From positions 10,879 through 74,878 of the forward strand of contig JAGGVF010000012.1 of assembly GCA_021158125.1 (NCBI GenBank): a stretch of DNA of 64,000 bases, given 5' to 3'. This document shows, piece by piece, positions 23,565 through 44,596 of this stretch (position 1 is the first letter of the stretch; each line of letters opens with the position of its first letter). The notes beneath the pieces are model-generated. The model did no database searches. It was not told the DNA's origin and saw only the letters and a program-made list of their open reading frames with translations. This DNA comes from Candidatus Bathyarchaeota archaeon (GTDB lineage: Archaea > Thermoproteota > Bathyarchaeia > Bathyarchaeales > WUQV01). The translations under genes were made by a program, and so were the position numbers.

Positions 23565-23790
23565 AATGGAAATTCAAAACAAAACATAAATAGCCTAATT
23601 AAGTATTAACTTGCGTGGTGAAGTGATGCCCCGCCAATTTCCCACACTCTAACACCTAATCTTCTTCAGAAAAACCGTGGAGTAAACTCCGAATTTTTGC
23701 TGAACAAAATTCTTCAGCAGAACTTTTATCCTAAAAACATTAAACTAGACTACCAAATCAAAACTTTACGTCTAAACAGTTTAAGGAGAA

Positions 23791-29265: not shown

Positions 29266-29571
29266 ATGAAGTATAGGAGTAAATTAAACATTATAGCCGA
29301 TATTTTAAAGGCTGCAGAGAACGGTTCAAAGAAGACTAGGATAATGTACTTAGCCAACCTCAGCTACCGTCTGCTTGAAAAGTATTTAGTTAAGGTCATT
29401 AAGGCCGATCTTCTACGGCACAACGGGGAGGTGTACGAACTGACGGAAAAAGGAAGGATTTTTCTAGAAAAGTTTAGGGATTATTCTGAAAAAGTGTCTA
29501 GGATCAGAAAGGAAGTTGAAATCATAAAGTTTGAGAGGCAAGTTCTTGAGCAAATGTGCGAAATTGCTTAA
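29266..29571 (+). CDS. Small winged-helix regulator, paralog of 28006-28263
   Basis: YRSKLNIIADIL...KTRIMYLANLSY...YELTEKG. Confidence 0.82.
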   Translation: MKYRSKLNIIADILKAAENGSKKTRIMYLANLSYRLLEKYLVKVIKADLLRHNGEVYELTEKGRIFLEKFRDYSEKVSRIRKEVEIIKFERQVLEQMCEIA

Positions 29572-30685
29572 ACTGCCAGAGGAGTTATTATTGTCAGAGG
29601 TAAAGAAAACTTCATTCATCATTGTTCTAAGCATCCTTCTACTTGCATTTTACCTAAACTTTTTACCGCAAGCGTTATCCTATACTCAAGAGGAAGCATA
29701 TCAGGCTCTCACTACTGTGCATCAAACAATCGTAAACTGTTACGGGGCAACTGTAGCGGCTGAAAAGGCTGGAGCGAACATTACGGGATTAACTACAACT
29801 CTTAACGAGGCTGGAAAGCTATATTCAAAGGCCCTTCTAGCCAGGAAAAACGAAGACTACAATTTAACGGTGCAGTTGGTCAACGAATGTTTAGGAAAAC
29901 TTGACGGCTTCATCGAAAAAGCGAACACTTTAAGGATAAATGCCTTGGAGAAAGGTTATTGGGATTCCATCTACAATATTGTATGTTCCAGTGTTGGAGC
30001 AGTTGTAATAATCTGTATAGCGTTCATAATTTGGTCTTTATTGAAAAAGAGGCATTTAAGTGGAAGGCTTAAAGTAAACCCGGAAAATTACAAAGCCATA
30101 TTCATAACTGTAACTTTCGTTTCAGCCCTGCTTGTGGCTTCACCAGCATTAAGCCGAGTACTTGTCTACCCCCGAACCGAATTCTTCACGGAGCTTTGGA
30201 TTTTGGATTCAAATCATAAAGCCGAAAACTACCCATTTAACATTTCAAGCAATCAGGATTACAGCATTTATCTAGGCGTAGGAAACCATCTGGGATATTG
30301 CGCTTACTACATGGTTCAAGTAAAGTTTAGGAATGAAAGCCAACCAGCTCCAACCAGTTTGGGGCCTATTGAAAAACGAAGTCCAAGCAGCCTACAGCCG
30401 CTTTACAACTTTACACTTTTTGTAGCAGACGAAGACGTTTGGGAGACGCCGTTAACTTTCTCATTTCATTATTATGAAAACGCTTCGAGAGTCAAAGTGA
30501 ACAAAATAGTTTTAAACGGGCTGTCTCTAAGCCTAAACAATCAACTTGTTGCGTGGAACTCCTCAAGAAACGGATATTACGGATTTCTCTTCTTCGAGCT
30601 TTGGCTCTACAACTCAACTGTCGACAGTTTTGATTATCATGGACGTTACGTTGGGCTTTGGCTAAACATGACAGTTTCATCTTGA
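29531..30685 (+). CDS. Membrane/secreted helical domain joined to a DUF1616-like domain
   Basis: C-terminal half FFTELWILD...AENYP...YLGVGNHLG...FELW; start uncertain. Confidence 0.65.
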   Translation: MRGKFLSKCAKLLKLPEELLLSEVKKTSFIIVLSILLLAFYLNFLPQALSYTQEEAYQALTTVHQTIVNCYGATVAAEKAGANITGLTTTLNEAGKLYSKALLARKNEDYNLTVQLVNECLGKLDGFIEKANTLRINALEKGYWDSIYNIVCSSVGAVVIICIAFIIWSLLKKRHLSGRLKVNPENYKAIFITVTFVSALLVASPALSRVLVYPRTEFFTELWILDSNHKAENYPFNISSNQDYSIYLGVGNHLGYCAYYMVQVKFRNESQPAPTSLGPIEKRSPSSLQPLYNFTLFVADEDVWETPLTFSFHYYENASRVKVNKIVLNGLSLSLNNQLVAWNSSRNGYYGFLFFELWLYNSTVDSFDYHGRYVGLWLNMTVSS

Positions 30686-30706: not shown

Positions 30707-31690
30707 TTGAATTTGAAAATCGCTGTTGTCGGAATGGGAAAGATGGGCCTATTACATACCAGTATTTTAAACGTAATTCCAGAGGTTGAACTTACTGCAA
30801 TTTGCGATAAAAGCTTTCTCATTCGAAAGTTTCTGAAGAAAGTCTTTAAAGAAATAGTCGTCACAAACGATGTTGATGCACTTCACAAGTTTGATCTAGA
30901 CGCAGTTTACATAACGACCCCCATAGCTTCCCATTATCACATTGCGAAGACCATATATACAGAGAATATTGCCCCTAACCTTTTCATCGAGAAAACTCTC
31001 GCCTCAAACTTCAAAGAAGCAAGAGAACTCTGCGAATTAGCTCAAGACGCAGGCGGCGTGAACATGGTTGGCTACATGAGACGATTCGCCGTAACCTTCC
31101 AGAAAGCCAAGAACTTATTAGAAGAGAAGGCTATTGGCAAAATTCTATCTTTCAAAGCCTACGCGTATTCTTCAGACTTTTACGGAAAGGAAAAATGTTC
31201 TAAAGCCCACACTTCCAACGTTGGAGTTTTGAGGGATTTAGGCTGCCATGCAATAGACCTAGCGTTATGGTTCTTCGGAGAGCTCAAAGTGGAAAAAGCC
31301 AAAGTAGAATCTATGGTAAGCCGTAACGCTGAGGATTCCGCACATATCAAATTTGCAGGTTCTAACGGTGTGCTCGGTGAGCTTAAAGTTTCAAGATGTG
31401 TAGATAAATATCGCATGCCAGAAGTTGGATTTCTAATTGAAGGCTCCCAAGGCGTTATAGATGTGAACGATGACAAACTGGAACTAATTTTAAACAGCGG
31501 AAAAACTCGTGGATGGTTTAGACACGACTTAAACGACACTGTAGAATTTTGGCTTGGAGCACCAGAATATTTCCGAGAAGATAAGCATTTCGTAGAATCC
31601 GTGCTTCATAAAAGCCCAGCGGAACCGAACTTTCAGACAAGCGCAAAAGTTGACTATTTAATCGATGAAATTAAAGCAAAGGCGGAATAA
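30707..31690 (+). CDS. Gfo/Idh/MocA oxidoreductase
   Basis: VVGMGKMG, FIEKTLA, VGYMRRF, DLGCHAID. Confidence 0.85.
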   Translation: MNLKIAVVGMGKMGLLHTSILNVIPEVELTAICDKSFLIRKFLKKVFKEIVVTNDVDALHKFDLDAVYITTPIASHYHIAKTIYTENIAPNLFIEKTLASNFKEARELCELAQDAGGVNMVGYMRRFAVTFQKAKNLLEEKAIGKILSFKAYAYSSDFYGKEKCSKAHTSNVGVLRDLGCHAIDLALWFFGELKVEKAKVESMVSRNAEDSAHIKFAGSNGVLGELKVSRCVDKYRMPEVGFLIEGSQGVIDVNDDKLELILNSGKTRGWFRHDLNDTVEFWLGAPEYFREDKHFVESVLHKSPAEPNFQTSAKVDYLIDEIKAKAE

Positions 31691-31691
31691 A

Positions 31692-32594
31692 ATGAAAACT
31701 GAAGAGAAAGCCTTTCTCGTTGGAGACAACCCATTTCACGGTATAAGCCACCTCTCTCAGGAAAGAAGCAGAGCCAGAGGAGATACGCCTACTAACCCCG
31801 AGTATGCCGCCGAGCTAATATGGATTTCGCTTGAAAACGGTGCGAACGGATTCATGTTTTCGGTAAGCGAAAAAACGCTTTCAATTTTAACTCATCTACG
31901 AAGAAAACGAACAGCTAATCGCCTAAGTTTATACGCTATTGTGCCGTACGCTTACGAATACGTAAGATTAGCTGGCAAAGTTGGAGGAATCCCAGGTCTA
32001 GCCAAGAAAATTATCAAGCAAATAGTTTTCTCTGGAAATTTTAATGCAATGGCTTCAGGTCTGAAAGGTGTTTTGAAGTCGGATTTAAATTCGCTCGTAA
32101 AAACTTATTTGTCATACGAAATTTCGAGGATAAAATCTTCAGCTGGCAAACAAACGGAATTAGACAGCGTCATTCTCCACCAACTAATAACAGACATGTG
32201 TTTAGCATTTAATCTAGAATGGATTTTTAAGCTATACGTAGATTTTATGCTCAAAAACAGACTAAAGCCGGGATTCAACACCGGAAATTTTGCCTTACTC
32301 GCCAAGAAGTTTAAAAAATGGAAGATAAACCTAGAAGACATCATGATAGCCGCCCCATTTAACAAGATTGGTTTCCAGATGGTTCCTTCAAAAGAAAAAT
32401 GTGAAAAGGCATTAGCTGAAATGCCTAAACCGAACGTTCTAGCAATAAGCGTATTAGCTGCGGGATATCTAAAGCCAGAAGAAGCAATAGACTACATAGC
32501 TCGTCTACCAAACATAAAGGGAGTAGCTGTAGGAGTATCAAAAGAACGCCATGCACATGAAACTTTCAGATTGCTTAAAGAAAAGCTATGCTAG
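31692..32594 (+). CDS. Hypothetical protein, possible truncated TIM-barrel/aldo-keto-reductase-like
   Basis: LVGDNPFHGISH N-terminus, LAISVLAAGYL near C-terminus; ATG 31692 abuts upstream stop. Confidence 0.55.
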   Translation: MKTEEKAFLVGDNPFHGISHLSQERSRARGDTPTNPEYAAELIWISLENGANGFMFSVSEKTLSILTHLRRKRTANRLSLYAIVPYAYEYVRLAGKVGGIPGLAKKIIKQIVFSGNFNAMASGLKGVLKSDLNSLVKTYLSYEISRIKSSAGKQTELDSVILHQLITDMCLAFNLEWIFKLYVDFMLKNRLKPGFNTGNFALLAKKFKKWKINLEDIMIAAPFNKIGFQMVPSKEKCEKALAEMPKPNVLAISVLAAGYLKPEEAIDYIARLPNIKGVAVGVSKERHAHETFRLLKEKLC

Positions 32595-32601
32595 TTTAAA
32601 G
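32595..32601 (+). promoter_or_regulatory. TATA box for tRNA-Cys
   Basis: TTTAAAG at about -29 to -23 of tRNA start. Confidence 0.5.
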
Positions 32602-32623
32602 TTTACACTTCAGATTTAAATGC

Positions 32624-32696
32624 GCCGGGGTGACCGAGGATTAGGTGGCGGCTTGCAGAGCCGTTTACGTTGGTGAAAATCCAACCCCCGGCTCCA
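32624..32696 (+). tRNA. tRNA-Cys(GCA), atypical D and T loops, CCA encoded
   Basis: GCCGGGG/CCCCGGC acceptor, U discriminator, GCGGC-TTGCAGA-GCCGT anticodon arm, GTTGG-TGAAAAT-CCAAC T arm. Confidence 0.85.
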
Positions 32697-32709
32697 ATTC
32701 TAACGTAAG

Positions 32710-33822
32710 ATGAGTGATAGTATGGATAAGAGGCGTAAGATTGCTTGGCTTGAGGAAAAAATTAATGCCATGCATTCCTTTAGAGGTTCCCTCCTTAGCT
32801 ATGTCAGTTCTTCTAGAACCTTAAAATCCAACATGCTAAAATTGGATGCCAACGAAAACTATTTTGTGGATCCAAACTTTCTAAAGAATTTACTCCTAGA
32901 AGCATTAAAGGAAGTCGATTTAAGGCTTTATAATCCCGGTGTAACTGTTGAGTTAAAGGAGGCTTTAGCTAGGTACCTCGGCATACCTGCTGGATGCATT
33001 GGAGTTGGCGGTGGAAGCGAACATTTAATTGACTCTCTTATTCAGCATTTCTTGGAAAGTGGTGATGAAGCTGTTTCTATTGTGCCAAGCTTCTTCATGT
33101 ACGAAAAGCGCGTTCGATTGAAAGGAGCTAAGTTAGTCAGCGTCCCTCTAAAGGAAGATTTGTCTATTGATGTTGATGAAGTTCTTAGAAGTTGCTCCAA
33201 CAAAACCAAGCTTATTTTCATTTGTTCTCCCAATAATCCCACCGGAAATCAATTTAGCTGGGAGAGTATCGAGGCTTTAGCTGACAACTGTTCGGCAATT
33301 ATAGTAGTAGATGAAGCCTACATTGAGTTTGGAGATGGCTCTATCTGCCCGAAGGCAGTTGAAAAGGAGAACATTCTTGTGGTAAGAACTTTCTCTAAGG
33401 CTTTCGGTTCAGCCGGATTGCGTTTTGGTTATTTTGCTGCATGTGAGGATCTAGCTTCAGCACTTTCTGAAGTTATTCCCTATACCGTAAGTACGCTCGT
33501 GGGCTGTTTTGTTATTAAGTTGTTAGGTAAATTCGAGGTTGTAAGAAACTGGATAGATGAGATTAAAAGGGAGCGTAAAAGGCTAATAGAAAAGCTGCGT
33601 TCTATCAACGGAATCAAAGTTTTGGATTCTAAGGCAAATTTTGTTACCTTCAGACCTAATAGAGATGCCGACAGAATTTACAACGGACTTCTAGGCAAGG
33701 GGATAGCTATTAAGAATCTTGGCGCTTTGCCGGTTATTGGACATTGTTTGAGGGTAACGGTTGGCCTTCCGGAGATGAATTATATTTTTCTGAAGTATTT
33801 GCGTGAGATTTTAGTCGGCTAG
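32710..33822 (+). CDS. Class II PLP enzyme (HisC/CobD-like aminotransferase or decarboxylase)
   Basis: LDANEN, SPNNPTG, DEAY, RTFSKAFGSAGLRFGY. Confidence 0.85.
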   Translation: MSDSMDKRRKIAWLEEKINAMHSFRGSLLSYVSSSRTLKSNMLKLDANENYFVDPNFLKNLLLEALKEVDLRLYNPGVTVELKEALARYLGIPAGCIGVGGGSEHLIDSLIQHFLESGDEAVSIVPSFFMYEKRVRLKGAKLVSVPLKEDLSIDVDEVLRSCSNKTKLIFICSPNNPTGNQFSWESIEALADNCSAIIVVDEAYIEFGDGSICPKAVEKENILVVRTFSKAFGSAGLRFGYFAACEDLASALSEVIPYTVSTLVGCFVIKLLGKFEVVRNWIDEIKRERKRLIEKLRSINGIKVLDSKANFVTFRPNRDADRIYNGLLGKGIAIKNLGALPVIGHCLRVTVGLPEMNYIFLKYLREILVG

Positions 33823-33844
33823 GCTTTTTTGTGGTTGATGGTTT

Positions 33845-34681
33845 ATGGCTGATGTTGAGATTAAGCTGGCTAACATTAGGCATCATGATGTTGAGGCTGA
33901 GTTTTTTGAGAAGGCTCATCCTGAGGGTTCAAGCCTTTATGAGCGATCTAGGGTTTCGCGGAGCTTGGCATATATTCTTCAGCTGTCGAATGGTAGGGAG
34001 GTATGCGTTGATGTCGGCTGCGGAACGGGATTTGTTACAGCTTTTGAATTGCCTTTTTACAGGATGGTTGTAGCAACGGATATTTCCAGGCGTATGCTCG
34101 AAGCCGCCAAGAAAAGATTGGGAAGTTTTGGTTCTTTAAACCTTGTTTTGTGCGATGCTGAGTTCCTGCCCTTTAAAGACGGTGTTGCTGATTTAGTTTC
34201 GGTTTCCTCCGTTTTGCATCATTTGCCTAAGCCCTCTAGTTGTTTGAGGGAGGTTTCGCGGGTTTTGAAGAAGGGTGGTTTTGTCTATATTACTCGTGAG
34301 CCTAGTTTTCAGCGTTTTAGGCGTTTTTTCGACTTTTTCGATGGATTTGTTGTGCGGAAGTTTTTGAGGTTTATGAGCATTTTGCGGTTGCATCGAGAAG
34401 ATTTGTCGGTGAGCTTAGAGCCTCGTTTGGAAGGCTTGGATTATGGCAAGGTTGACGTTCATTATTCGAGAGGTTTTCACTTCGGTACTCTGTCCAATTT
34501 TCTTTCAAGCGAAGGTTTTGATGTTGCGTCTGCCTATTCATATCATTGGATTTATCCAGACTCTAATAGAGGCTGGCTTCAAACCCTTTTAACTAAGAGT
34601 AATTTTTTGATTGAAAAACTTCCGCTTGCCAATAGATTTGGGAGATATGTTTGCGTTATCGCAACCAAGGAGAGTCTTTAG
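33845..34681 (+). CDS. Class I SAM methyltransferase
   Basis: VDVGCGTG, DAEFLPF, SSVLHHL, LKKGG. Confidence 0.85.
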   Translation: MADVEIKLANIRHHDVEAEFFEKAHPEGSSLYERSRVSRSLAYILQLSNGREVCVDVGCGTGFVTAFELPFYRMVVATDISRRMLEAAKKRLGSFGSLNLVLCDAEFLPFKDGVADLVSVSSVLHHLPKPSSCLREVSRVLKKGGFVYITREPSFQRFRRFFDFFDGFVVRKFLRFMSILRLHREDLSVSLEPRLEGLDYGKVDVHYSRGFHFGTLSNFLSSEGFDVASAYSYHWIYPDSNRGWLQTLLTKSNFLIEKLPLANRFGRYVCVIATKESL

Positions 34682-35604
34682 ATACGAGGAAAAGGTTTAG
34701 ATGGCCAGTGAAACTTATATTAGCACGATTCTTTCTATCACAGTTTTCTTCAATACTTTTTTGCAGGTATTTGAAGCAGTTCGCGTATAAGCGTGGAAGA
34801 TCCGTGCAGACAGGTTACGATAAAATTTTTCAAAAATTTGAGAGTTCAGATGTTTGGAAAGAGCTTTGTTCTCAAGTTTTCGGGGAATATTTGGGACAAT
34901 ACAGCTTTACTGACACAAAGCAGATTGATTTTCTTGTAGACAAGCTTAATATTACATCAAAAAGCCGAGTTTTAGATTTAGCTTGTGGACTTGGCGGCTT
35001 AAGCTGTTATCTTGCTAGAATCTCTGGATGCCAGATCGTAGGTTTAGATATTTCTTCAGTGGCCGTTAAATTTGCAAATCAGCGTGCAATGCTTGAGGGT
35101 CTTAAGGGTCGTGCAGTTTTTAGGGTTGGAATACTGCCTGAACTACCTTTTCCAAGTGAATATTTTGATGCCATAGTGAGTATTGATAGCATTTATGGTA
35201 TTCCTGATAAAGGCCAGTTATTTAGAGAATGCTTTAGAGTTTTAAAGCCGGGTGGGCGTATTGGTTTTTACACACTTTATAAGCGTGGAGATTTCTCATT
35301 AATTGCCGCTCTTAATTCCCGTGCACTTTATTGGTTTCCCTTGAAATCTTACAATGCTCTACTTTGGCAGACTGGTTTTAGAAGAATATTAAAGATTGAT
35401 ATGACTGCTGAATTTGTACAGCTTGCAAGGATATGGATTAGGGCGATAAGTCTTAAGAAGCGTTTGCTTGAGAAAGAGTTGGGCAAAGATGTAACGAATG
35501 GATTATTAAAAGGAGATATCTTGGTGGCTTTGAAGTTAGCCGAAGCGGGACTTATTGGGAGAGCTTTCTTTTATGGGGAAAAACCAGTAACGGGTTTGTG
35601 GTGA
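34651..35604 (+). CDS. Class I SAM methyltransferase (amine N-methyltransferase-like)
   Basis: YLGQYSF, VLDLACGLGG, RVLKPGGRIGF; start uncertain. Confidence 0.8.
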   Translation: MRYRNQGESLDTRKRFRWPVKLILARFFLSQFSSILFCRYLKQFAYKRGRSVQTGYDKIFQKFESSDVWKELCSQVFGEYLGQYSFTDTKQIDFLVDKLNITSKSRVLDLACGLGGLSCYLARISGCQIVGLDISSVAVKFANQRAMLEGLKGRAVFRVGILPELPFPSEYFDAIVSIDSIYGIPDKGQLFRECFRVLKPGGRIGFYTLYKRGDFSLIAALNSRALYWFPLKSYNALLWQTGFRRILKIDMTAEFVQLARIWIRAISLKKRLLEKELGKDVTNGLLKGDILVALKLAEAGLIGRAFFYGEKPVTGLW

Positions 35605-35608
35605 AAAT

Positions 35609-36973
35609 TTGAATTTAAGGGATTATTTAGAAGTTGGGAATAATGGCCATTTGATTCTTCGCGGAGTTGATTTGGTGGAGCTTACGGATAAATACGGGAC
35701 TCCTCTTTTTGTTTTTGATGAGGTTACGCTTGTTGAGAATTTTGAGAGGTTTAGGAAGGCTTTTGAAAGCCTTTATCCGAAGGTGATTGTTTGTTATTCT
35801 GTTAAGACAAATAATAATTTGGCTATCTGCAGCATTCTTTGCGAGAAAGGGGCGTATGCGGAAGTTTCTTCTGAGCTGGACTTACATATAGCCTTAAAGG
35901 CTGGATTTCCAGGAGAAAGAATAATTTACGATGGACCTTTTAAGTCTGAAGAAGCGTTAAGGATGGCTGTTAATGAGAATGTTTTGCTTATAAATGTTGA
36001 GTCTTTTGCCGAGATGAAGAGGCTGAATAGAGTTGCTGGAGAGTTAAATGTAAAGCAAGCTATTGGTTTAAGGGTTAACTCCTTTAAAGACCCCGGCCTC
36101 TCTAAGTATTTTAGTTTAAATAAACTCGTTAATGCGGCCTATGGCAATCTTGAAGGTAAGTTTGGTTTTTGCTTAGATGAGGCATATGCAGCTTTTGAAA
36201 AGGCTTTGAAATTTGAAAATTTGAGTGTTGAAGGGATCATGACTCATCCTTATCGGCAGGCCGCTAAAGTGCTGTTGCCCTTGATGCATAAACTTCGCAA
36301 GGGTTTAGGAATTGAATTTAAGTATCTTAATGTTGGAGGAGGCTTTTATTCAGGAGACGTCCGTTTTGTTGGTGGTAAAGAGCTTATTTTAGATTTCCTA
36401 AGGCGAAAAATTAAGCTTAAATCGAAATTGAGCACGGAAGTTGATGTTCCAAGCATTGAGTCTGTCGCGAAGATGCTCGTGAATGATATTAAACAGGGCT
36501 TGAAAGAGTTACCAGAGCCGATTTTGATTGTTGAGCCTGGGCGTTTTATTGCTTCTTCAGCTGGTCTTTTACTTGTGCGGGTTGACCACATTAAGAATGC
36601 CGGTGGATGTAAGTGGGCTTTTGTGGATGGAGGAACAAATCTTCTTCCAAGGTTTGATGCTGTTGAACTAAGGAAAGTTATAATTGCAAACAAGGCTTCT
36701 GATGACCCTTGTGAGGAGTATTACATCTCTGGACCGTTGCTTTACTCTGATGATTTCATAACCTTAAAAGCTTCACTTCCTGAACTACGCGAGGGCGATG
36801 TTCTTACAATTTTATGCTGTGGAGCCTACACGCTGTCTAGGTCTAATCAGTTTCTGTATCCGCGTCCAGCCGCAGTTTTGGTAAGATCAAAAGGTGAGGT
36901 AATGGTTATTCGGGAAAGGGAAACCTTTGAGGATGTTTTATGTAAGGACCGCAATATTCGAATTAAGCAATAA
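35609..36973 (+). CDS. Fold-type III PLP decarboxylase (LysA/Orn/Arg family), divergent
   Basis: GTPLFV, YSVKTN, GKFG, NVGGG, EPGRF, DGGTN, GAYT. Confidence 0.85.
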   Translation: MNLRDYLEVGNNGHLILRGVDLVELTDKYGTPLFVFDEVTLVENFERFRKAFESLYPKVIVCYSVKTNNNLAICSILCEKGAYAEVSSELDLHIALKAGFPGERIIYDGPFKSEEALRMAVNENVLLINVESFAEMKRLNRVAGELNVKQAIGLRVNSFKDPGLSKYFSLNKLVNAAYGNLEGKFGFCLDEAYAAFEKALKFENLSVEGIMTHPYRQAAKVLLPLMHKLRKGLGIEFKYLNVGGGFYSGDVRFVGGKELILDFLRRKIKLKSKLSTEVDVPSIESVAKMLVNDIKQGLKELPEPILIVEPGRFIASSAGLLLVRVDHIKNAGGCKWAFVDGGTNLLPRFDAVELRKVIIANKASDDPCEEYYISGPLLYSDDFITLKASLPELREGDVLTILCCGAYTLSRSNQFLYPRPAAVLVRSKGEVMVIRERETFEDVLCKDRNIRIKQ

Positions 36974-36989
36974 CTGGTTGATGTTCTAA

Positions 36990-38228
36990 TTGATCAAGGG
37001 TGGAGTTTTAGTTGCTGAGGGGGAAAATCCGGTTGCAATTCCTATTATAAGATCTCTGGCTGGAAAAGGCGTTAACGTAACCGCCATGGCAGGTACAATG
37101 CGCCCTTTCGCTCGGCTCTCAAAGTATTGCAGTAATCTAATTTTGGTTCCTTCGATGACCCGTGAAAAGGAATATGCTGCTACCGTGGAGAAAATTGTTA
37201 AGAAGATTAAGTTTGATGCGCTTTTTCCAATTTTTGAGTGGTCTTTAATCCCCATTTCCAAGAATAGGGACAGGATAGGCCGTTATGTCAGGATTCCAAT
37301 AGCGAGTCACGAAGCCATTCTTAGATGCTATGATAAACTTTCAACTTTGAAACTGGCTATGGAAAAAGATGTTCCAGTTCCTAAAACCTACCTTGTGCAT
37401 AATTTTTCGGAGCTTAGGAAAGTTGCAGAGGAGATAACTTATCCTGCCGTGGTTAAACCTCGTTGGTCCATGGTTTGGCAGGGTGATAAGGCATATTATA
37501 GAAGGGGTGGTTTTGTTAACTCTCCGGAAGAGCTTATTGCCACATACATCAGTATACATCGTTATTTCCCTTTTCCAATGATCCAAGAGTATGTCCCTGG
37601 AATCAACTTTTCAGTAGCCGCCCTATACAATAACGGTAGGCCCAGAGCTTTCTGTTGCATAAAGGTTTATAGGGCTTGGCCTCCGACTGGTGGTAACAGC
37701 TGTTATCGGGAAAGCGTTGAGTTGGATAATGGAATGAGGGCTTTTTCTGAGCGATTGCTTGGAGCTTTAGATTGGCATGGAATTGCTGAGGTTGAGTTTA
37801 GACTAGATGCGAGGGATAATGTTCCCAAACTGATGGAGATTAACCCCCGCTTTTGGGGCTCTTTGTGTGTAGCCATTAAGGCCGGAGTTGATTTTCCTTA
37901 TATGCTTTATCGCATTGCTGTAGACGGCGATATAAACGGAGTATTCAGTTATAAAATTGGCGTTAAAGGAAGGTACTTAGAACAAGAGCTCTTGTATATT
38001 ATTAGCATGTTATTTCAAGGTAAAACTTTTAATCCTAGCGTTAAAGGTGGAAGGCTGAAGGCTTTGATGAATTGGCTCAGGTTTTATGAACATGGACTTT
38101 TTTACGACTTGTTTGAATGGGATGATCCCGCTCCTTTCCTTTACAATTTTTTTTCTTGTCCTTTTGGGCTGATGAGACTCTTTCGGGGTAAAAACTATGC
38201 TTGGGGCGAGCCGGGCGTTCGTCATTAA
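36990..38228 (+). CDS. ATP-grasp carboxylate-amine ligase
   Basis: YPAVVKP, MIQEYVPG, WHGIAEVEFR, LMEINPRFWGS, GVDFP. Confidence 0.88.
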   Translation: MIKGGVLVAEGENPVAIPIIRSLAGKGVNVTAMAGTMRPFARLSKYCSNLILVPSMTREKEYAATVEKIVKKIKFDALFPIFEWSLIPISKNRDRIGRYVRIPIASHEAILRCYDKLSTLKLAMEKDVPVPKTYLVHNFSELRKVAEEITYPAVVKPRWSMVWQGDKAYYRRGGFVNSPEELIATYISIHRYFPFPMIQEYVPGINFSVAALYNNGRPRAFCCIKVYRAWPPTGGNSCYRESVELDNGMRAFSERLLGALDWHGIAEVEFRLDARDNVPKLMEINPRFWGSLCVAIKAGVDFPYMLYRIAVDGDINGVFSYKIGVKGRYLEQELLYIISMLFQGKTFNPSVKGGRLKALMNWLRFYEHGLFYDLFEWDDPAPFLYNFFSCPFGLMRLFRGKNYAWGEPGVRH

Positions 38229-38243
38229 CCTTGAAGGCGGAAA

Positions 38244-39314
38244 GTGAGAGGTATGAGCGGAGATATTACCATAGATTTTAGTCCCTCAAAGCAAGTGTGG
38301 GATGCTTTTTTGTCCGAATTCGGCGTGGGGAATCTTCAGCAATCTTATGAGTATGGTGAGGTAGCCAAGATGATTAATTCTCACACTAGGGTTGTGCGGC
38401 TCTTAGCCTTAGAGGGGGACACGCCAGTAGGCTTAGCACAGGCCAGATACAATAGAAGGTTTGGTTTTGGGGGCCGTTTGGAGATTGGTGGAGTTTATGG
38501 TTATGGACCCGTTGTTGGCGATAGCTTTGACAAAGATAGGGTTTTAATTGAATTAATTACTTCTATGGAGAGATTAGCCGTTAAGGATAGGGTTTGCGAA
38601 TCCTTCGTTTTTACGTTAGAGAGGATTGATGTTTTAGAAAGGCTTGGCTACGCTTTTGAAAAGACTTTTAATGTTTATAGGGTTGGGCTTCAGAATGGGA
38701 TTGAAGACTTATGGAGGCGGATTGCCCATAACAAAAGAAGGAATATTAAAAAGGCACAGTCGCATGGTGTTGATGTAATTTGTAGCACGAAGCTTGGGGA
38801 TTTAGATGCCTTCTATGAAATGCATGCGCTTTCTGGTAAAAGGATTGGGTTCGTCCCCCATCCACATGGATACTTTGCCTCCTTTCTGAAAGTCTTCGGT
38901 GTATCCGGTAGGGTCAGGGTTTTTCTGGCGTTTTTTGGCGGTAAACCTGTTGCCGGCGTTTTTGTCGTCGTTCATGGCGACACTGCGTACGCTTTGGGCG
39001 CTGGCTCCCGTAAAGAAGCTTGGTGCGTTAGACCGAACGATATAGTTCACTGGAAGGCAATGGAGTGGGCGTGTAACGAGGGGCTTTCCTACTATCATAT
39101 GGGTTTTGTTTCTGAACCTCCGCCCAGCCAAGGCTCGGAGGGTTGGGGTCTGTGGAGATGGAAGAGGGAGTGGAATGGAACCCTCCAGAACGTTCATGTT
39201 TACCATAAGGTTTTGATGCCTAGGTTTAAGAAGTTCCTGCTAAACCCCTACGAGAAAGTCTACAATATAGCCAGTAAGCTTCGCTTCTATTTGAGTCGAG
39301 ATGACTTGTTGTGA
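38244..39314 (+). CDS. FemAB/FemX-like GNAT-fold transferase
   Basis: LQQSYEYG, KRRNIKKA, F..FYEM, PNDIVHWKAMEWA, GLWRWKREW. Confidence 0.75.
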   Translation: MRGMSGDITIDFSPSKQVWDAFLSEFGVGNLQQSYEYGEVAKMINSHTRVVRLLALEGDTPVGLAQARYNRRFGFGGRLEIGGVYGYGPVVGDSFDKDRVLIELITSMERLAVKDRVCESFVFTLERIDVLERLGYAFEKTFNVYRVGLQNGIEDLWRRIAHNKRRNIKKAQSHGVDVICSTKLGDLDAFYEMHALSGKRIGFVPHPHGYFASFLKVFGVSGRVRVFLAFFGGKPVAGVFVVVHGDTAYALGAGSRKEAWCVRPNDIVHWKAMEWACNEGLSYYHMGFVSEPPPSQGSEGWGLWRWKREWNGTLQNVHVYHKVLMPRFKKFLLNPYEKVYNIASKLRFYLSRDDLL

Positions 39315-40300
39315 AAAAGGTTAATTTAGGAATTGTAGGGCTAGGTTTTCAAGGAAAAATTCATCTTCGCAATTGCCTTCGTATAGGAAATGCTAAAGTT
39401 TTAGGTGTTGCAGACATTTCTGATAAAGCCTTAAATTACGCTAGGAAATTTGGTGTAAAGAATGTTTACAGAAATTACGAGGATTTACTAAAAGATAAGG
39501 ATTTGGACGCTGTTATTTTAAGTTTACCGAATTTTCTTCATATGGAAAGTGTGGTTAGGGCTGCTGAGGAGGGAAAGGACATCTTTCTTGAAAAGCCCCT
39601 TGCAAGGAATTTGGAAGAAGGGGAGAAAATTGTGTCTGCTGTTGAGAAAGCGGGCGTCAGGTTGATGATGGGTTTTGATTTGAGGTTTCACCCCGTTTTG
39701 AGGGAATTGCGTAATAAAATAGATGAGGGATACTTTGGTGAGGTTCAGGTTGCAGAAGCCACTAATGTCAGCGGTGGCCCCTTCTCTCTGCGAAGCGATA
39801 GATTGGGACCGGTTCCAGTGTCTTCTTGGTGGTTTGAAGAGGAGTTGGTAGGTGGCGGCGCCTTGTTGGATCTTGGCTCCCACATGATTGACTTATTAAC
39901 ATGGTATTTCGGTGAGGTTGATCATGTTGAATGTTTTTTGAAGTACATGTTTAACTTGGATGTTGAAGACGCTGCCACATGTCTTTTAAAGTTTAGGAAG
40001 GGCCCCTTAGCAACCGTTAAGGTGGGATGGTTTTCTAAGGACTTTATACAGTCAATTCAATTGTGCGGAACTGCGAGGAATTTATATGTGCCCATATCCG
40101 GCTCTAAAGCTTTAGGTAAGATTTGGAAGGACTTAAAAAGGAAGGTTGGTTTGTACAATTCTGATCCCTACTATTTAGAGATTAAATACTTTGTAAACTG
40201 CCTACAGAGAGATGAAAACCCTGTCCCTTCTGAAAAGGAAGGCTTAAAATCCTTACGGCTGATTTTAAGTGCCTATGAAAGCTATCGTAAAAACTCGTGA
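39311..40300 (+). CDS. Gfo/Idh/MocA oxidoreductase
   Basis: IVGLGFQG, FLEKPLA, GFDLRF, GGGALLDLGSHMID. Confidence 0.88.
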   Translation: MKKVNLGIVGLGFQGKIHLRNCLRIGNAKVLGVADISDKALNYARKFGVKNVYRNYEDLLKDKDLDAVILSLPNFLHMESVVRAAEEGKDIFLEKPLARNLEEGEKIVSAVEKAGVRLMMGFDLRFHPVLRELRNKIDEGYFGEVQVAEATNVSGGPFSLRSDRLGPVPVSSWWFEEELVGGGALLDLGSHMIDLLTWYFGEVDHVECFLKYMFNLDVEDAATCLLKFRKGPLATVKVGWFSKDFIQSIQLCGTARNLYVPISGSKALGKIWKDLKRKVGLYNSDPYYLEIKYFVNCLQRDENPVPSEKEGLKSLRLILSAYESYRKNS

Positions 40301-40315
40301 AAACATGATGCGAGA

Positions 40316-41206
40316 TTGGGTATTTTGAGTAAAGTAAGCTTTGTTAAAGCCTCTAATGGCGATCGTGAAGCCGTAAAGGAGGCTATGTTGAAATCTTTGA
40401 GATTGATAAATTTTGAGTTTAATAGAAATGTCGAGAAAATAGTCATTAAACCTAACATGTGCTATTACTTTCATCCCTCGACGGGCGAAGTGACAGATCC
40501 ACGGTTTGTCAGCGTTTTGATTGATGTTTTAAGGGGAGGATTCGGAAAAGATGTGGAAATATTTGTTGTAGAGTCGGACGCGTCTGCAATGAAGTGCAAA
40601 TACGTCTTTCACATGCTTGGGTATGATGTGATGGCTAAAGAAAAGGATGTTAGGCTCGTTAATTTAAGCGAAGAAAAATATAGAATTGTAAATGTTCAAC
40701 TAAATAAAGCGGATTTTAATTTTCATGTTCCAGAGCTCTTTTACGATTGTGATTTGGTGATTAACGTTCCTAAGTTGAAGTATATGACGGATGTGAAGAT
40801 CACTTGTGCCTTAAAAAACATGTTTGGATGTAACGCCTACGCCAAGAAATTTATTTATCATCATGCTTTAAACGAGGCAATTGTTGCGATTAACAAGCTG
40901 ATTAAAACGGATTTGGTGGTCGTTGATGGTTTAGTTGTTAGTGGAAGATACACCAAAAAATTAAATTTGGTGATGTCAAGCATGGATCCGGTCGCCTTAG
41001 ACGCAGCCGCATCTAAAATATTGGGATTCAACCCAAAATCTGTGAAGCAAATAGTTTTGGCCTCTCAGGTGGGGTTAGGTTCCATAGACTTTACTCCTGT
41101 TGGAGATTATTATTACGCGATTAGAGAGTTTCCAAGAAAGAGATGGAAAGATAATGTGCGGGATGCAATTGCAGCTGTGTATTTACGTGTTTTTCGTGAA
41201 ACCTAG
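40316..41206 (+). CDS. DUF362-family protein
   Basis: IVIKPN, VTDP, VINVPKLK, CALKNMFG, DPVALDA. Confidence 0.8.
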   Translation: MGILSKVSFVKASNGDREAVKEAMLKSLRLINFEFNRNVEKIVIKPNMCYYFHPSTGEVTDPRFVSVLIDVLRGGFGKDVEIFVVESDASAMKCKYVFHMLGYDVMAKEKDVRLVNLSEEKYRIVNVQLNKADFNFHVPELFYDCDLVINVPKLKYMTDVKITCALKNMFGCNAYAKKFIYHHALNEAIVAINKLIKTDLVVVDGLVVSGRYTKKLNLVMSSMDPVALDAAASKILGFNPKSVKQIVLASQVGLGSIDFTPVGDYYYAIREFPRKRWKDNVRDAIAAVYLRVFRET

Positions 41207-41221
41207 CCTTTTAAGAGGATA

Positions 41222-42388
41222 ATGAGCTTGAGGGTGAACCAGGTTAACGATTTTGATGCTTTAAGAGAAGAATGGAACACTTTTTTAAAAAAGAACATTT
41301 TAGGGGACAATGTGTTCCTTACATGGGAATGGCTGTCTACTTGGTGGAAGTATTTTGGTGAGCGAAGAAAACTTCTTCTCTTGACCGTTGAAGATGAAAA
41401 TAAAATTGTCGCAATTGCCCCGCTTATGCTTTCAAAGTATAAATTACCGTTTTTGGGAAGCGTCAAAAAAATAGAGTTCTTGGGGGTTAGGCACTCAGAT
41501 TATAACAATTTTATTATTTCCGAGAAGGAAAGAGAATGTATGAGACTGATTACGGACTATCTGATTGATGTTATTGCTGATTGGGATTGGATTGAGCTTA
41601 AAGAAATCCCAGAAAACGCTGAAAACTTTGATGTTTTGGAAAAATTATTCTCAGACGTTTCACCAGATTTAAAAATTAGAAAAAGAGTATGTAACGTATG
41701 CCCTTATATCCCTCTGCCAGACTCATTCGATCTTTTAATGAAAAGATTGAAGAAGAATATGAGGCAAAACCTGAATAAGTATTTGAGGAGAATTAAGAAG
41801 CATCATAAAGTAGAATTAAAGCGATACGACGAGGGTGGTTTTAGCGTTAAAGAGGGAATGAAAGTTTTTTTTGAGCTTCATGAAAAACGGTGGGCTTTAA
41901 AGGGTTTGCCCGGGGCCTTCAAAAGTGAAAAGGCCTTTCTGAACTTTCATATGGATATTGCTCAACTTTTCGCAGATAAAGGTTGGTTAGGTCTTTATTT
42001 TTTAATGGCAAATGATGAACCTATAGCGGCTCAGTACAACTTTGAATACTATAGAAAAATGTATTATTATCTTGGCGGGTTTAATCCGCAATTTTCTAAC
42101 TATTCGGTCGGCAACTTGCTAACGATGTTTGTTTTAGATAGATGTATCCGGAGGGGATTCAAGGAGTATGATATGATGAGAGGTAATGAGCAGTATAAGC
42201 TGTTTTGGACAAATACTTGCAGAAGAAATTTTGAAGTAAGGCTGGTGCCAAACGGATTGACAAGAAAATTCTATGATTGGTTGACATGGAGTAGTACCGT
42301 TAGTAGTTTAGCGGGAAAACTGAAACTCTCATTAAAAAGAGAGATTATGTCTAATAATAGTTCTTCGGGGCATTTTGATGAGCAATAA
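41222..42388 (+). CDS. GNAT (CelD/BcsL-like, Acetyltransf_6) transferase
   Basis: FLTWEWLSTWW, IAPLM, SDYN, SVGNLL, YDMMRGNEQYK. Confidence 0.85.
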   Translation: MSLRVNQVNDFDALREEWNTFLKKNILGDNVFLTWEWLSTWWKYFGERRKLLLLTVEDENKIVAIAPLMLSKYKLPFLGSVKKIEFLGVRHSDYNNFIISEKERECMRLITDYLIDVIADWDWIELKEIPENAENFDVLEKLFSDVSPDLKIRKRVCNVCPYIPLPDSFDLLMKRLKKNMRQNLNKYLRRIKKHHKVELKRYDEGGFSVKEGMKVFFELHEKRWALKGLPGAFKSEKAFLNFHMDIAQLFADKGWLGLYFLMANDEPIAAQYNFEYYRKMYYYLGGFNPQFSNYSVGNLLTMFVLDRCIRRGFKEYDMMRGNEQYKLFWTNTCRRNFEVRLVPNGLTRKFYDWLTWSSTVSSLAGKLKLSLKREIMSNNSSSGHFDEQ

Positions 42389-43094
42389 AAAGAGGATTAT
42401 AGTCTTCGCGCCCCATCCAGACGATGAAACATTTGGCTGCGGGGGCACAATAGCCAAGAAGATAAGCGAGGGGCATGAAGTTTATGTAGTTATTATGACA
42501 GATGGAAGATACGCGTTTCTCAATGTTTTAGGCATAGAAAAGGATCCGACTCCTGAAGAGCTTAAAGAGATCAGAATGCAAGAGGTTAAAAAGGCAACGG
42601 AAATTCTCGGAGTCCCTGAAGGTAATTTGATTTTTCTGAATTTTATCGACGGAACCCTAGAAGATAATAAGGAAGCCGCTGAAGAAAAGGTAATTAATAT
42701 TTTACGCGAAAAACGTCCTGATGAAGTTTATTTACCATATAGGGGGGATGGCCACCCAGATCACCGCGCCGCGTACAAAATTGTAAAAAATGCGATTAGA
42801 AAACTGCAAATTTCTCCCGTCTGCTATGAATACTCGATTACGCATAGGTTTGCCCGGCTTGGGCGCTTAATTGATGCCTTTCTTGATTTTGTTTTTGGGA
42901 TCAAAAAGGTATATGTCGATATTTCAGAATTTCTGGACGTTAAAAAGCTTGCGATTATGAAATTTAAATCCGAGTTGACGGTTGTTTCGGCTAGGCAGCG
43001 TAAACCTATCGTAGCCAGTGTTGAAAAGTTTGAAAATAACGGAGAAATGTTTCGCGTAGAGAAAAAATGCTACAAAAAATCTGATTTAACTTAG
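42375..43094 (+). CDS. PIG-L family deacetylase
   Basis: APHPDDETFGCGG, TDG, HPDH. Confidence 0.9.
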   Translation: MMSNKKRIIVFAPHPDDETFGCGGTIAKKISEGHEVYVVIMTDGRYAFLNVLGIEKDPTPEELKEIRMQEVKKATEILGVPEGNLIFLNFIDGTLEDNKEAAEEKVINILREKRPDEVYLPYRGDGHPDHRAAYKIVKNAIRKLQISPVCYEYSITHRFARLGRLIDAFLDFVFGIKKVYVDISEFLDVKKLAIMKFKSELTVVSARQRKPIVASVEKFENNGEMFRVEKKCYKKSDLT

Positions 43095-43109: not shown

Positions 43110-44222
43110 ATGTTAGAGTTTATATTTTTATGTTTTCTCTCCATGTTCTTAGGAACTTACCTAGCTTACTTTTTCTATATTAGAAAACATGTTAGAAGGA
43201 CTTGGGATATTAAGGTAGATGAAAGATTCGAGCCTGAAGTATCAATTTTAATTCCTGTTCATAATGAAGAAGCAAATATTGAGTCGAAGCTAGAAAATAT
43301 AAAGAAGGTTTCGTATCCGAGAGAGAAAATGGAAATAATAGTCGTGGACGACGCTTCAAACGACAGAACCATCGAAAAAATTGAGAATTTTATGCAGAAG
43401 CACTCGAAGTTAAATATTAGACTAGTGAGGCAGAATCCGCGAGCTGGAAAATCGGCGGCGTTGAACAAAGCATTACGCGTATCTACTAAACCTATTGTGA
43501 TAGTTTCTGATGCTGACACGAAATGGCCTCCAGATATTCTTCGAAAGGCACTGCCCTTTTTGGCTGATCCAAAAGTTGGCGCCGTTACTGGAAGAGGCGT
43601 GAATACGAACGTCAAAACGTCTTGGGTGACTAAAGCTGAAGAATCGTACCTTCAACTTGCCAATTTTATTAGGCTTGGTGAATCAAAAATCCATTCAACT
43701 ATAAGATTTGAAGGCGGATTCTGCGCTTATAAGCGCGATGCTTTTGATGCCTTTGATTGCGAAACAGGCTCTGATGATTCCGGAACTGCGTTAAAAGTTG
43801 TTTCTAGAGGCTACCGAAGCATAATGGCTCCAGAAATAGTGTTTTATACAAGCTTTCCGCCAAGCTTCCTTGCAAAATTCAAAATTAAGCTTCGACGAGC
43901 TAATCAACTAATAGGTTTGTGGATTAAATGTCTAAAGCTCCTCTTAAAAAGGCGACTCTCTCTGCCTAAAAGAATAGCGATACCAGAAATAACTTTATTC
44001 ATCTTTGATCCTATAATCTTACTCATATCAATTCTTAGCGGTGTAGCCTTAATAGTACTGAATCCGCTTTCTCCACTTAGCCTAGCGATTATCTTCTCTG
44101 TATTGGGATTGACGATTTTCGCGAGGCATGTTTTCGTTGAACTTATCATTGACAACATAATTCTGATAAGTGCTTTAATGACGTACATATTCAGGCGGCG
44201 ATATGTCGCCTGGGGAAAATGA
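43110..44222 (+). CDS. GT2 glycosyltransferase with TM segments
   Basis: LIPVHNEE, VVDDAS, GKSAALN, SDAD. Confidence 0.88.
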   Translation: MLEFIFLCFLSMFLGTYLAYFFYIRKHVRRTWDIKVDERFEPEVSILIPVHNEEANIESKLENIKKVSYPREKMEIIVVDDASNDRTIEKIENFMQKHSKLNIRLVRQNPRAGKSAALNKALRVSTKPIVIVSDADTKWPPDILRKALPFLADPKVGAVTGRGVNTNVKTSWVTKAEESYLQLANFIRLGESKIHSTIRFEGGFCAYKRDAFDAFDCETGSDDSGTALKVVSRGYRSIMAPEIVFYTSFPPSFLAKFKIKLRRANQLIGLWIKCLKLLLKRRLSLPKRIAIPEITLFIFDPIILLISILSGVALIVLNPLSPLSLAIIFSVLGLTIFARHVFVELIIDNIILISALMTYIFRRRYVAWGK

Positions 44223-44278: not shown

Positions 44279-44596
44279 TTGAAGGTTAAGGATGAAGTTT
44301 TCGAGTTTTTAGTTCCTAAAGTAATTAAAAATGCTGATTTACGCGTGAATGTTCCGAAAGTGAAGTATATGACTTTCACAAAAATTTCGTGTGCTTTAAA
44401 AAATATTTTTGGCTGTAATCCTTACCCGAAAAAGTTCAAGTATCATCCTAAACTTGACGAGGTTATTGTCGCATTAAACAAGATTATGCCGTTCGATTTA
44501 TATTTTCTTGACGGTTTGATTGTTTGCGGTTCAAAAACTCTAAAGTTGGGACTTATAATGGCAAGTCAAGATCCGGTTGCAATGGATGCGGGTTGA
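44279..44596 (+). pseudogene. Internal fragment of a second DUF362 gene
   Basis: Aligns only to the middle of 40316-41206 (NVPKVKYM..ISCALKNIFGC...DPVAMDA); in-frame TAA just upstream, early stop. Confidence 0.7.

Follow-up and report, generated by a model that had tools for sequence, protein, structure and literature searches.

The atypical tRNA-Cys gene and its canonical paralog

The window considered here is a stretch of 64,000 nucleotides from Candidatus Bathyarchaeota archaeon (GenBank assembly GCA_021158125.1, contig JAGGVF010000012.1, positions 10,879 to 74,878 of the forward strand). Within a long locus of glycan genes it contains an atypical tRNA-Cys gene, whose stems and cysteine identity are intact and whose elbow nucleotides are altered, followed on the same strand by genes for FemAB-like tandem-GNAT proteins. 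The genome also encodes a canonical tRNA-Cys elsewhere. The interpretation favoured in this work, with a probability of roughly 0.55, is that the atypical tRNA-Cys is a functional second copy serving the locus as a dedicated cysteine donor for glycan building, and not for translation. Genomes, contigs, loci and families are denoted by working labels beginning with G, C, L and f, respectively, G000 being the genome of the window. The gene and its putative promoter are:

32596-32602, + strand: TTTAAAG, putative TATA box 22-28 nt 5' of the tRNA (sequence reading)
32624-32696, + strand: atypical tRNA-Cys(GCA) with encoded CCA (ARAGORN; Rfam RF00005)

This gene, at 32624-32696 (+), is the one intron-less tRNA that ARAGORN finds in the window, and it reaches 50.8 bits with RF00005 against a gathering score of 29. 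As read from the sequence, the acceptor stem is GCCGGGG/CCCCGGC, followed by U73 and the encoded CCA; U8 and G9 are present, and the D stem is ACC/GGU with G13.A22. The anticodon stem is GCGGC/GCCGU with UUGCAGA as anticodon loop, and the variable loop is UUAC (4 nt). The D loop, AGGAUU, has 6 nt and no G18G19; the T stem, GUUGG/CCAAC, makes both pairs 50-64 and 51-63 U-A; and the T loop, UGAAAAU, places G at position 55 and A at position 56. Folded alone, the gene forms a cloverleaf (-33.3 kcal/mol, z = -2.8). The anticodon GCA and U73 are determinants of cysteinyl-tRNA synthetase (CysRS); this Cys identity set is present in the atypical tRNA-Cys, and both elements are invariant across the intact copies described below. 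G18G19, U55 and C56 are elbow nucleotides common to all translating tRNAs, and the universal set of G18, G19, U54, U55 and C56 is not carried by this gene. The stems, GCA, U73, CCA, the two loops and the U-A pairs, as they had been given in an earlier sequence-only reading of this DNA, all proved correct on re-reading, and so did the TTTAAAG stretch, which is plausibly an archaeal TATA box to judge by its sequence, and the 13-nt spacer between the CCA and the next open reading frame (ORF), which begins at 32710.

That reading had left open whether the genome holds a second, canonical tRNA-Cys. Such a gene is present on another contig (C4:64976-65050), with D loop AGCGGUU and T loop UUCAAAU. 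The genome comprises 1.37 Mb in 22 contigs and is 98% complete; when ARAGORN was rerun on it with intron detection, 43 tRNA genes were obtained, among which the atypical tRNA-Cys alone has a T arm other than G/A-GTTCRA. The other 42 all keep the GTTC T loop, U55, C56 and G18G19. The canonical and atypical tRNA-Cys have identical acceptor stems and differ by compensatory changes in three stems (from canonical to atypical, 10-25 G-C to A-U, 31-39 G-C to C-G and 51-63 G-C to U-A) and also at the elbow-forming positions of the loops. All the carrier genomes tested, about 18 besides G000, gave a canonical-type tRNA-Cys, the candidate in G118 being uncertain. Encoded CCA was discarded as a special feature of the atypical gene in this genome, since 41 of the 43 tRNA genes have it. 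A single CysRS is encoded (C12:17234-18625; 544.7 bits, above the cut-off). A profile search for SepRS in G000 yielded only a PheRS cross-match, which rules out SepRS as a charging enzyme there.

In three other carriers the canonical tRNA-Cys adjoins the CysRS gene (G215:C10:3029-3090, G348:C1:291094-291124 and G400:C4:18015-18044), the atypical copy lying instead in the glycan locus. G215 and G348 also hold a bona fide SepRS and an extra, truncated CysRS-like gene (listed coordinates G215:C27:25630-26856 and G348:C1:1403048-1404283); the G348 copy of the extra gene is interrupted by one in-frame TAA.

The glycan locus

According to Pfam annotation, the atypical tRNA-Cys lies inside one long co-oriented glycan locus. 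The tRNA had been described as heading the module; this does not hold, because the locus extends further upstream and the upstream neighbours are equally conserved. Its genes, in order around the tRNA, are:

29531-30685, + strand: DUF1616 membrane protein, first conserved gene of the locus (Pfam PF07760)
30707-31690, + strand: GFO/IDH/MocA sugar oxidoreductase (Pfam PF01408/PF22725; in the same place in G023 and G387)
31692-32594, + strand: conserved protein of 300 amino acids, predicted TIM barrel (ORF listed from 31665; homologues have 300 amino acids)
32710-33822, + strand: HisC/CobD-like class I/II pyridoxal-phosphate (PLP) aminotransferase (Pfam PF00155; NCBIfam hisC, 286 bits, just above the cut-off)
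33845-34681 and 34651-35604, + strand: two S-adenosylmethionine (SAM) methyltransferases (Pfam Methyltransf_11/25)
35609-36973, + strand: PLP decarboxylase of the Orn/DAP/Arg family (Pfam PF02784/PF00278)
36990-38228, + strand: ATP-grasp ligase (Pfam PF15632/PF02655)
38244-39314, + strand: FemAB-like tandem GNAT of group A, GNAT-A (Pfam FemAB, Acetyltransf_6)
39311-40300, + strand: GFO/IDH/MocA oxidoreductase (Pfam)
40316-41206, + strand: DUF362 protein (Pfam)
41222-42388, + strand: FemAB-like tandem GNAT of group B, GNAT-B (Pfam PF13480, Acetyltransf_6)
42375-43094, + strand: PIG-L/LmbE-type de-N-acetylase, overlapping the end of GNAT-B by 14 nt (Pfam PF02585, 119.6 bits)
43110-44222, + strand: family 2 glycosyltransferase (GT2) after the GNAT-B/PIG-L pair (Pfam PF00535)

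Further GT2 genes follow in the window to about 52400, and past them come a DUF2206 membrane protein and sugar-nucleotide enzymes. Parts of this arrangement recur in other carriers: the DUF1616 gene is directly 5' of the tRNA in G295 and G215, the GFO/IDH/MocA-DUF362 pair is found in G215, G387, G400 and G100, the GNAT-B/PIG-L pairing in G387 and G215, and the GT2 of 370 amino acids follows that pair in G387 too.

The gene for the 300-amino-acid protein, among the most conserved of the locus (1970 homologues at about 70% identity), stands immediately 5' of the tRNA in G000, G023, G385, G387 and G400, and in L134 a small inserted module separates the two. The protein has no Pfam or NCBIfam match; in Foldseek, its AlphaFold (AF2) model (pLDDT 77.7) is weakly similar to aldo-keto reductases and ketose epimerases. 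It was considered as a tRNA-related factor and rejected, being a very widespread TIM barrel with weak matches of the aldo-keto-reductase and epimerase kind. On two metagenome contigs, small antitoxin/toxin-like ORFs occur between the 300-amino-acid gene and the tRNA position at L133:3210-3510, where the tRNA is absent, and at L134:1690-2220.

The next gene after the tRNA encodes the HisC-like enzyme also in G023, G295 and G101, and in G385 to judge by its N-terminal sequence. The PLP decarboxylase matches the NCBIfam lysA-like and exosortase-associated decarboxylase models, in both cases below the cut-off. The tailoring genes differ in other genomes, where Asn-synthase-like, radical SAM/SPASM and small GNAT genes are found. 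These companions suggest a different use of the tRNA, namely as a carrier on which cysteine, or phosphoserine (Sep) where SepRS exists, is remodelled by the locus enzymes (the HisC-like PLP enzyme, the decarboxylase, methyltransferases or radical SAM enzymes) before the GNAT delivers the resulting non-proteinogenic acyl group. We regard this as unlikely; it is a refinement of the dedicated-donor interpretation and does not contradict it. It would account for the position of the HisC/CobD-like gene right after the tRNA in G000, G023, G295, G101 and probably G385, for the amino-acid-type enzymes among the variable companions (decarboxylase, Asn-synthase-like, ATP-grasp, radical SAM/SPASM) and for the SepRS and extra truncated CysRS-like gene of G215 and G348, and the strong divergence of the elbow would be explained if such a carrier must never reach the ribosome. 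Nonetheless, the tailoring enzymes vary among loci while the tRNA and the GNAT-B/PIG-L pair are constant, no member of a family known to act on aminoacyl-tRNA (SepCysS, GatCAB or SelA type) was seen in the locus, and G000 lacks SepRS.

A conserved family of atypical copies

A BLAST search of relatives identified a copy with the same loops in G023, a member of another family, between the same 300-amino-acid gene and the same aminotransferase. Pattern searches of 400 genomes of the order, which belongs to Bathyarchaeia, gave 16 real carriers in six families; a match in G305 was rejected as a chance match inside an ORF. Further copies came from loci fetched around GNAT orthologues and from metagenome contigs searched with a covariance model built for this work (R1). 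ARAGORN misses the copies of G215, G348 and G310, for which Rfam or R1 is needed. In addition, the exact T arm plus acceptor strand was scanned in one genome per species across all prokaryotes, and it was found in six Bathyarchaeia genomes and in one metagenome-assembled genome (MAG) labelled 'Aenigmatarchaeota' with the same synteny. Four bacterial matches to the exact pattern were dismissed as chance matches, with no tRNA at those places and a count about as expected. In total, about 20 distinct copies were aligned, from six families of one Bathyarchaeia order, the 'Aenigmatarchaeota' MAG and metagenome contigs. The sequencing runs that hold the locus are DNA runs from hydrothermal-vent and sediment metagenomes, with no RNA-seq run among them.

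The family shares a derived elbow, in which U55 is replaced by G55 and C56 by A56 or C56, G18G19 is lost, and the pair 51-63 changes from G-C to U-A or C-G. G55 is found in 19/19 intact copies and G18G19 in 0/19, with T loops of the forms UGAAAAU, UGAAAAC, UGAAAGU, UGAAACU, UGCAAAU, UGCAACU and UGCGAAU. GCA and U73 are kept in all intact copies, and CCA is encoded in 16 of the 19. All canonical copies have G-C at 51-63, where the atypical copies invariably have U-A or C-G; the pair 50-64 is C.A in four atypical copies, and the variable loop has 4 nt throughout, except that a reading of 5 nt is possible in G023. Only in families f2 and f9 (G023, G295, G385 and G387) does encoded CCA set the atypical copies apart, since most of them carry it and the canonical tRNA-Cys genes there do not. 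This points either to an origin of the island in a lineage that encodes CCA or to poor recognition of the altered elbow by the CCA-adding enzyme.

The stems of these tRNAs are well maintained. Across 14 atypical sequences, 97.9% of the cells are paired and six pairs show double (compensatory) changes, which touch all four stems; the observed pairing, double-change cell count or covariation score was reached in none of 500 shuffles. Strain variants in vent metagenomes have 1-3 differences in the 73-nt tRNA, versus 6 substitutions plus indels per 64-nt flank. Covariation, the invariant GCA and U73 and the retention of the loops across six families bear out the earlier suggestion of selection rather than decay. 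That suggestion had been built on a possible exchange of a G19-C56 contact for U19-A56, which fares less clearly: base 56 does track the D loop, since copies with A56 mostly have U and copies with C56 mostly have G in its last three positions, and the pattern fits; however, the copies are phylogenetically clustered and the signal is therefore only suggestive.

The same observations bear on the idea that the gene is a decaying pseudogene, or the relic of an integrated element that used tRNA-Cys as attachment site. Decayed copies do exist, and they look unlike the intact ones: the G310 copy has a broken acceptor stem and has lost its anticodon, and the G254a copy has broken stems. Toxin-antitoxin-like genes are inserted beside the tRNA position on some contigs, and glycan islands are frequently mobile. 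Against this, the gene is full-length with compensatory changes in all four stems, six families keep the same derived loops, strains show few differences, and the Pfam scan of the flanking genes contained no integrase domain. Decay or relic status is considered extremely improbable.

Linkage to FemAB-like GNAT genes

In all 14 loci with downstream sequence, one to three FemAB-like GNAT genes lie 3' of the tRNA on the same strand, at distances of 60 nt to 11.5 kb; G023, G385, G075 and G377 are left out of this count, their contigs ending beside the tRNA. The GNAT gene directly follows the tRNA in G387, G400, G215, G348 and G301, is 1.3 kb away in G118, G231 and L155, and is 4-11.5 kb away in G000, G295, G097, G254, L134 and G100. 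The GNATs of these loci form three groups, of which group B, together with the PIG-L gene and GT2, is the common denominator, GNAT-B orthologues being found in nearly all tRNA-bearing loci. Among the 400 genomes of the order, a GNAT-B orthologue is present in 11 of the 16 tRNA carriers versus 48 of the 384 others (Fisher p = 7e-7). The sequence-only reading had singled out the protein at 38244 (GNAT-A) as partner of the tRNA, a role for which the most constant candidate is instead GNAT-B at 41222-42388, coupled to PIG-L. It had also considered that odd loops might occur in tRNA-Cys of the lineage regardless of FemAB context, which is not the case, as they were found only in copies inside the glycan locus, 5' of same-strand GNATs. 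The further proposal that atypical copies track FemAB-like genes holds in one direction, from tRNA to GNAT (14/14 loci); in the other it fails, most GNAT loci having no such tRNA. A strict one-to-one link between GNAT-B and the tRNA is thus ruled out.

Paired atypical copies flank a single GNAT-B gene in G301 (L106, G301:C4), where the copies at 12977-13050 and 15140-15213 are identical, and also in L104 (G231) and L155. This suggests local duplication of a tRNA-GNAT unit.

The compact setting of the gene also raises the question of whether the tRNA might be merely a tRNA-shaped element that never acts as donor, serving either as an RNase P/Z site at which the operon transcript is split or to sense cysteine charging and tune expression of the locus accordingly. 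Its position among same-strand genes at very small distances (the next ORF begins after 13 nt) and the two copies around the GNAT gene in G301, G231 and L155 are in keeping with this. A processing signal, on the contrary, needs neither invariant GCA and U73 nor the CCA found in 16/19 intact copies, and we know of no archaeal T-box-like sensor; such a function is judged very unlikely.

Other tRNA genes lie near some GNAT-B loci (tRNA-Pro, tRNA-Asn and tRNA-Leu, near L110, L147 and L201). Inspection covered two of the tRNA-Pro genes, both of an ordinary type with GGTTCAAATCC T arms, and no dedicated tRNA for another amino acid was seen near GNAT-B loci.

The GNAT and PIG-L enzymes

GNAT-A shows sequence similarity to the Fem proteins, with 52.6 bits for PF02388 against a cut-off of 24. 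In phmmer searches of PDB sequences it matches FemX of Staphylococcus aureus (6snr, E 1.6e-7) and of Weissella viridescens (1ne9, E 4e-4), and among NCBIfam models it matches pepcterm_femAB and FemX, far below their cut-offs. GNAT-B has no match among PDB sequences, searched either as a single sequence or as a profile, and PF13480 is its only Pfam match. Its AlphaFold (AF2) model (pLDDT 85.5, pTM 0.84) is nevertheless Fem-like in fold: the top eight Foldseek matches are FemX and FemA, followed by Sbb17/Sba18 and MprF (TMq 0.49-0.60), the best being FemX 7z5y (E 3.3e-12, TMq 0.59), and Sbb17/Sba18 (9wqx, 9wqy) are matched with E of about 4e-10 and TMt 0.69-0.70. Tandem GNATs that use acetyl-CoA (VipF, MshD and glucosamine N-acetyltransferase) fit the model worse, with TMq of 0.35-0.42. 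On this predicted structure, GNAT-B is closest to users of aminoacyl-tRNA, namely FemX/FemA, Sbb17/Sba18 and the MprF/aaPGS domains.

The best NCBIfam matches of the PIG-L protein are BshB1 (97.9 bits versus a cut-off of 182.5) and MshB (45.7 versus 224); as these equivalog cut-offs are not reached, the deacetylase of the window is classified only as a member of the PIG-L superfamily. Aminoacylation of a sugar amine from tRNA has a biochemical precedent in Orf11 of BD-12 (PMC12945691).

Proposed role of the atypical tRNA-Cys

In the route proposed here, the atypical tRNA-Cys would be transcribed within the operon from a promoter of its own, and the single CysRS would load it with cysteine, as expected because GCA, U73, the acceptor stem and CCA are all kept. 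The resulting Cys-tRNA would be the aminoacyl donor for one or more of the downstream FemAB-type tandem-GNAT transferases, which would place the cysteinyl group on the free amine of a sugar. This amine might be freed by the PIG-L deacetylase from N-acetylglucosamine laid down by the adjoining GT2, or alternatively be supplied by the GFO oxidoreductase and the aminotransferase. The changed elbow (positions 18, 19, 55 and 56) and the 51-63 pair would hold the tRNA wholly or partly off aEF1A and the ribosome, so that glycan synthesis and translation would not compete for one pool of Cys-tRNA, as in staphylococci. A more specific version, in which GT2, PIG-L, the Fem-like GNAT and the dedicated tRNA-Cys together build a cysteinyl-glucosamine amide by a tRNA-dependent route, is put forward very tentatively and is rather doubtful. 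If true, it would mean a thiol-bearing surface glycan, glycolipid or low-molecular-weight thiol for anaerobic vent archaea, with the dedicated tRNA insulating translation from the drain of glycan synthesis on Cys-tRNA.

Several observations weigh against a dedicated donor. No GNAT group occurs in all of the tRNA loci: even group B has one exception, G100, where two other Acetyltransf_6 genes are found. In the opposite direction, the 48 GNAT-B-positive genomes of the order mentioned above have no atypical tRNA, only 2 of 80 metagenomic GNAT-B loci include one, and in L133, a close orthologous locus, a toxin-antitoxin-like insert occupies the place of the tRNA; with so many GNAT-B loci lacking it, the GNATs therefore do not need the tRNA. 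To our knowledge, no donor has been proven for any Acetyltransf_6/CelD-type protein. The rules by which T-stem pairs set EF-Tu affinity come from bacteria, and applying them to aEF1A is an assumption. Two locus copies, L113:7083-7154 (G032) and L118:9599-9672 (G101), keep a UUC T loop; they lack G18G19 and have a U51 T stem, both genomes also have a canonical copy, and these tRNAs may be intermediates in the divergence of the atypical family. Finally, the copies of G215 and G348 show a mismatch in the anticodon stem, U37 and a C50.A64 mismatch, and could be decaying. Relaxed anticodon loops of this kind, including that of the G400 copy with C33 in place of U33, fit a non-decoding role and could also mark early decay.

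Some of these points favour an ordinary extra isodecoder that works in translation, its loop changes being tolerated and its place in the glycan locus a historical accident. The CysRS-type identity elements and the stems are all intact, many GNAT-B loci do without the tRNA, and UUC persists in the two locus copies just described. Such an explanation has to contend with U55, C56 and G18G19 being kept in the 42 other tRNAs of the genome and in every canonical tRNA-Cys examined in the order, with a derived state that is held across six families and always at this locus, and with the C33 of the G400 copy; it is thought quite unlikely. The isodecoder, the tRNA-shaped element and the pseudogene are all disfavoured because the Cys identity is invariant, the loops are conserved in six families and the location is exclusive.

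Comparison with known systems and significance

The closest parallel to a dedicated cysteine donor is offered by the non-proteinogenic tRNA-Gly of staphylococci: G18G19 and U55 are missing from these tRNAs, and the absence of strong EF-Tu determinants keeps them out of translation (PMC13443448). The same hallmark, loss of G18G19 and U55, is seen in the atypical tRNA-Cys, as the sequence-only reading had proposed (PMC13443448), together with an altered T stem. The staphylococcal tRNA-Gly NP1-3 (used by FmhB, FemA and FemB) are likewise extra isoacceptors beside proteinogenic copies, and there Fem-type tandem GNATs act on a cell-envelope polymer, whereas here users of the Fem type are presumed. 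The differences are considerable: the host is an archaeon and not a Gram-positive bacterium, the amino acid is cysteine instead of glycine, the case is known from genes alone, and a sugar amine, in a glycan locus, is the likely acceptor in place of the lipid II peptide. Moreover, the operon that encodes the presumed users also contains the tRNA gene, nearly all copies carry G at position 55, and base 56 appears to co-vary with a D-loop base.

Other systems share one aspect each. Sbb17/Sba18 of streptothrisamine biosynthesis, among the best structural matches of GNAT-B, are Fem-like proteins of the GNAT fold that acylate the amine of an amino sugar from aminoacyl-tRNA (PMC12945691); they differ in belonging to bacterial secondary metabolism, in using Gly-tRNA of the normal pool with no dedicated tRNA, and in having about 10% identity to GNAT-B. 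FemX of W. viridescens, a UDP-MurNAc-pentapeptide:L-Ala transferase, tops the structural matches of GNAT-B and is matched directly by the GNAT-A sequence, but it uses ordinary tRNA-Ala and a nucleotide precursor of peptidoglycan, and archaea of this group have no murein. In mycothiol and bacillithiol synthesis the logic of the genes is the same, with a glycosyltransferase, then a PIG-L-type deacetylase (MshB/BshB) and then addition of cysteine to the freed glucosamine amine; there, however, cysteine is added by MshC, an ATP-dependent CysRS paralog, or by BshC, and not by a tRNA with a Fem-like GNAT. The locus of the window is polymer-like, with many GT2 genes, and the likeness lies in the logic only. 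The tRNA-Cys genes of Bathyarchaeota described in SepRS/SepCysS operons represent a different context (Mukai et al., 2017).

Neither a dedicated tRNA-Cys nor an archaeal tRNA linked to Fem genes turned up in full-text literature searches, and the same holds for aminoacyl-tRNA-dependent (cysteinyl) decoration of archaeal glycans; in the literature searched, dedicated non-translating tRNAs are documented essentially for staphylococcal tRNA-Gly alone. If the proposed role is true, the atypical tRNA-Cys would be a second, independent case, in another domain of life and with another amino acid and acceptor, in which the tRNA is wired into the operon of its users, and splitting the tRNA pool between the ribosome and envelope synthesis would be a recurring solution. 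It would also point to the decoration of archaeal glycans by this route, and it would suggest a donor that can be tested for the large, uncharacterised Acetyltransf_6/CelD family. The variants found in nature form a series, from UUC kept through G55 with A56 or C56 to decayed copies, and constitute a data set on the elbow and T-stem features that separate ribosomal from non-ribosomal use.

Additional observations in the window

A fragment of 98 amino acids between two GT2 genes (window 44300-44593, + strand; C11:55178-55471) is 58% identical to the DUF362 gene at 40316-41206, and probably represents what is left, as a pseudogene, of a duplicated module. A few kb 5' of the glycan locus, at 22452-26981 (+), are genes for a class Ib aminoacyl-tRNA synthetase of the Trp/Tyr type and for the PheRS alpha and beta subunits, with no link seen to the locus. 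An intron-containing tRNA-Trp(CCA), found only with the intron detection of ARAGORN, lies at 18057-18198 on the - strand (C11:28935-29076) and has an intron of 65 nt.

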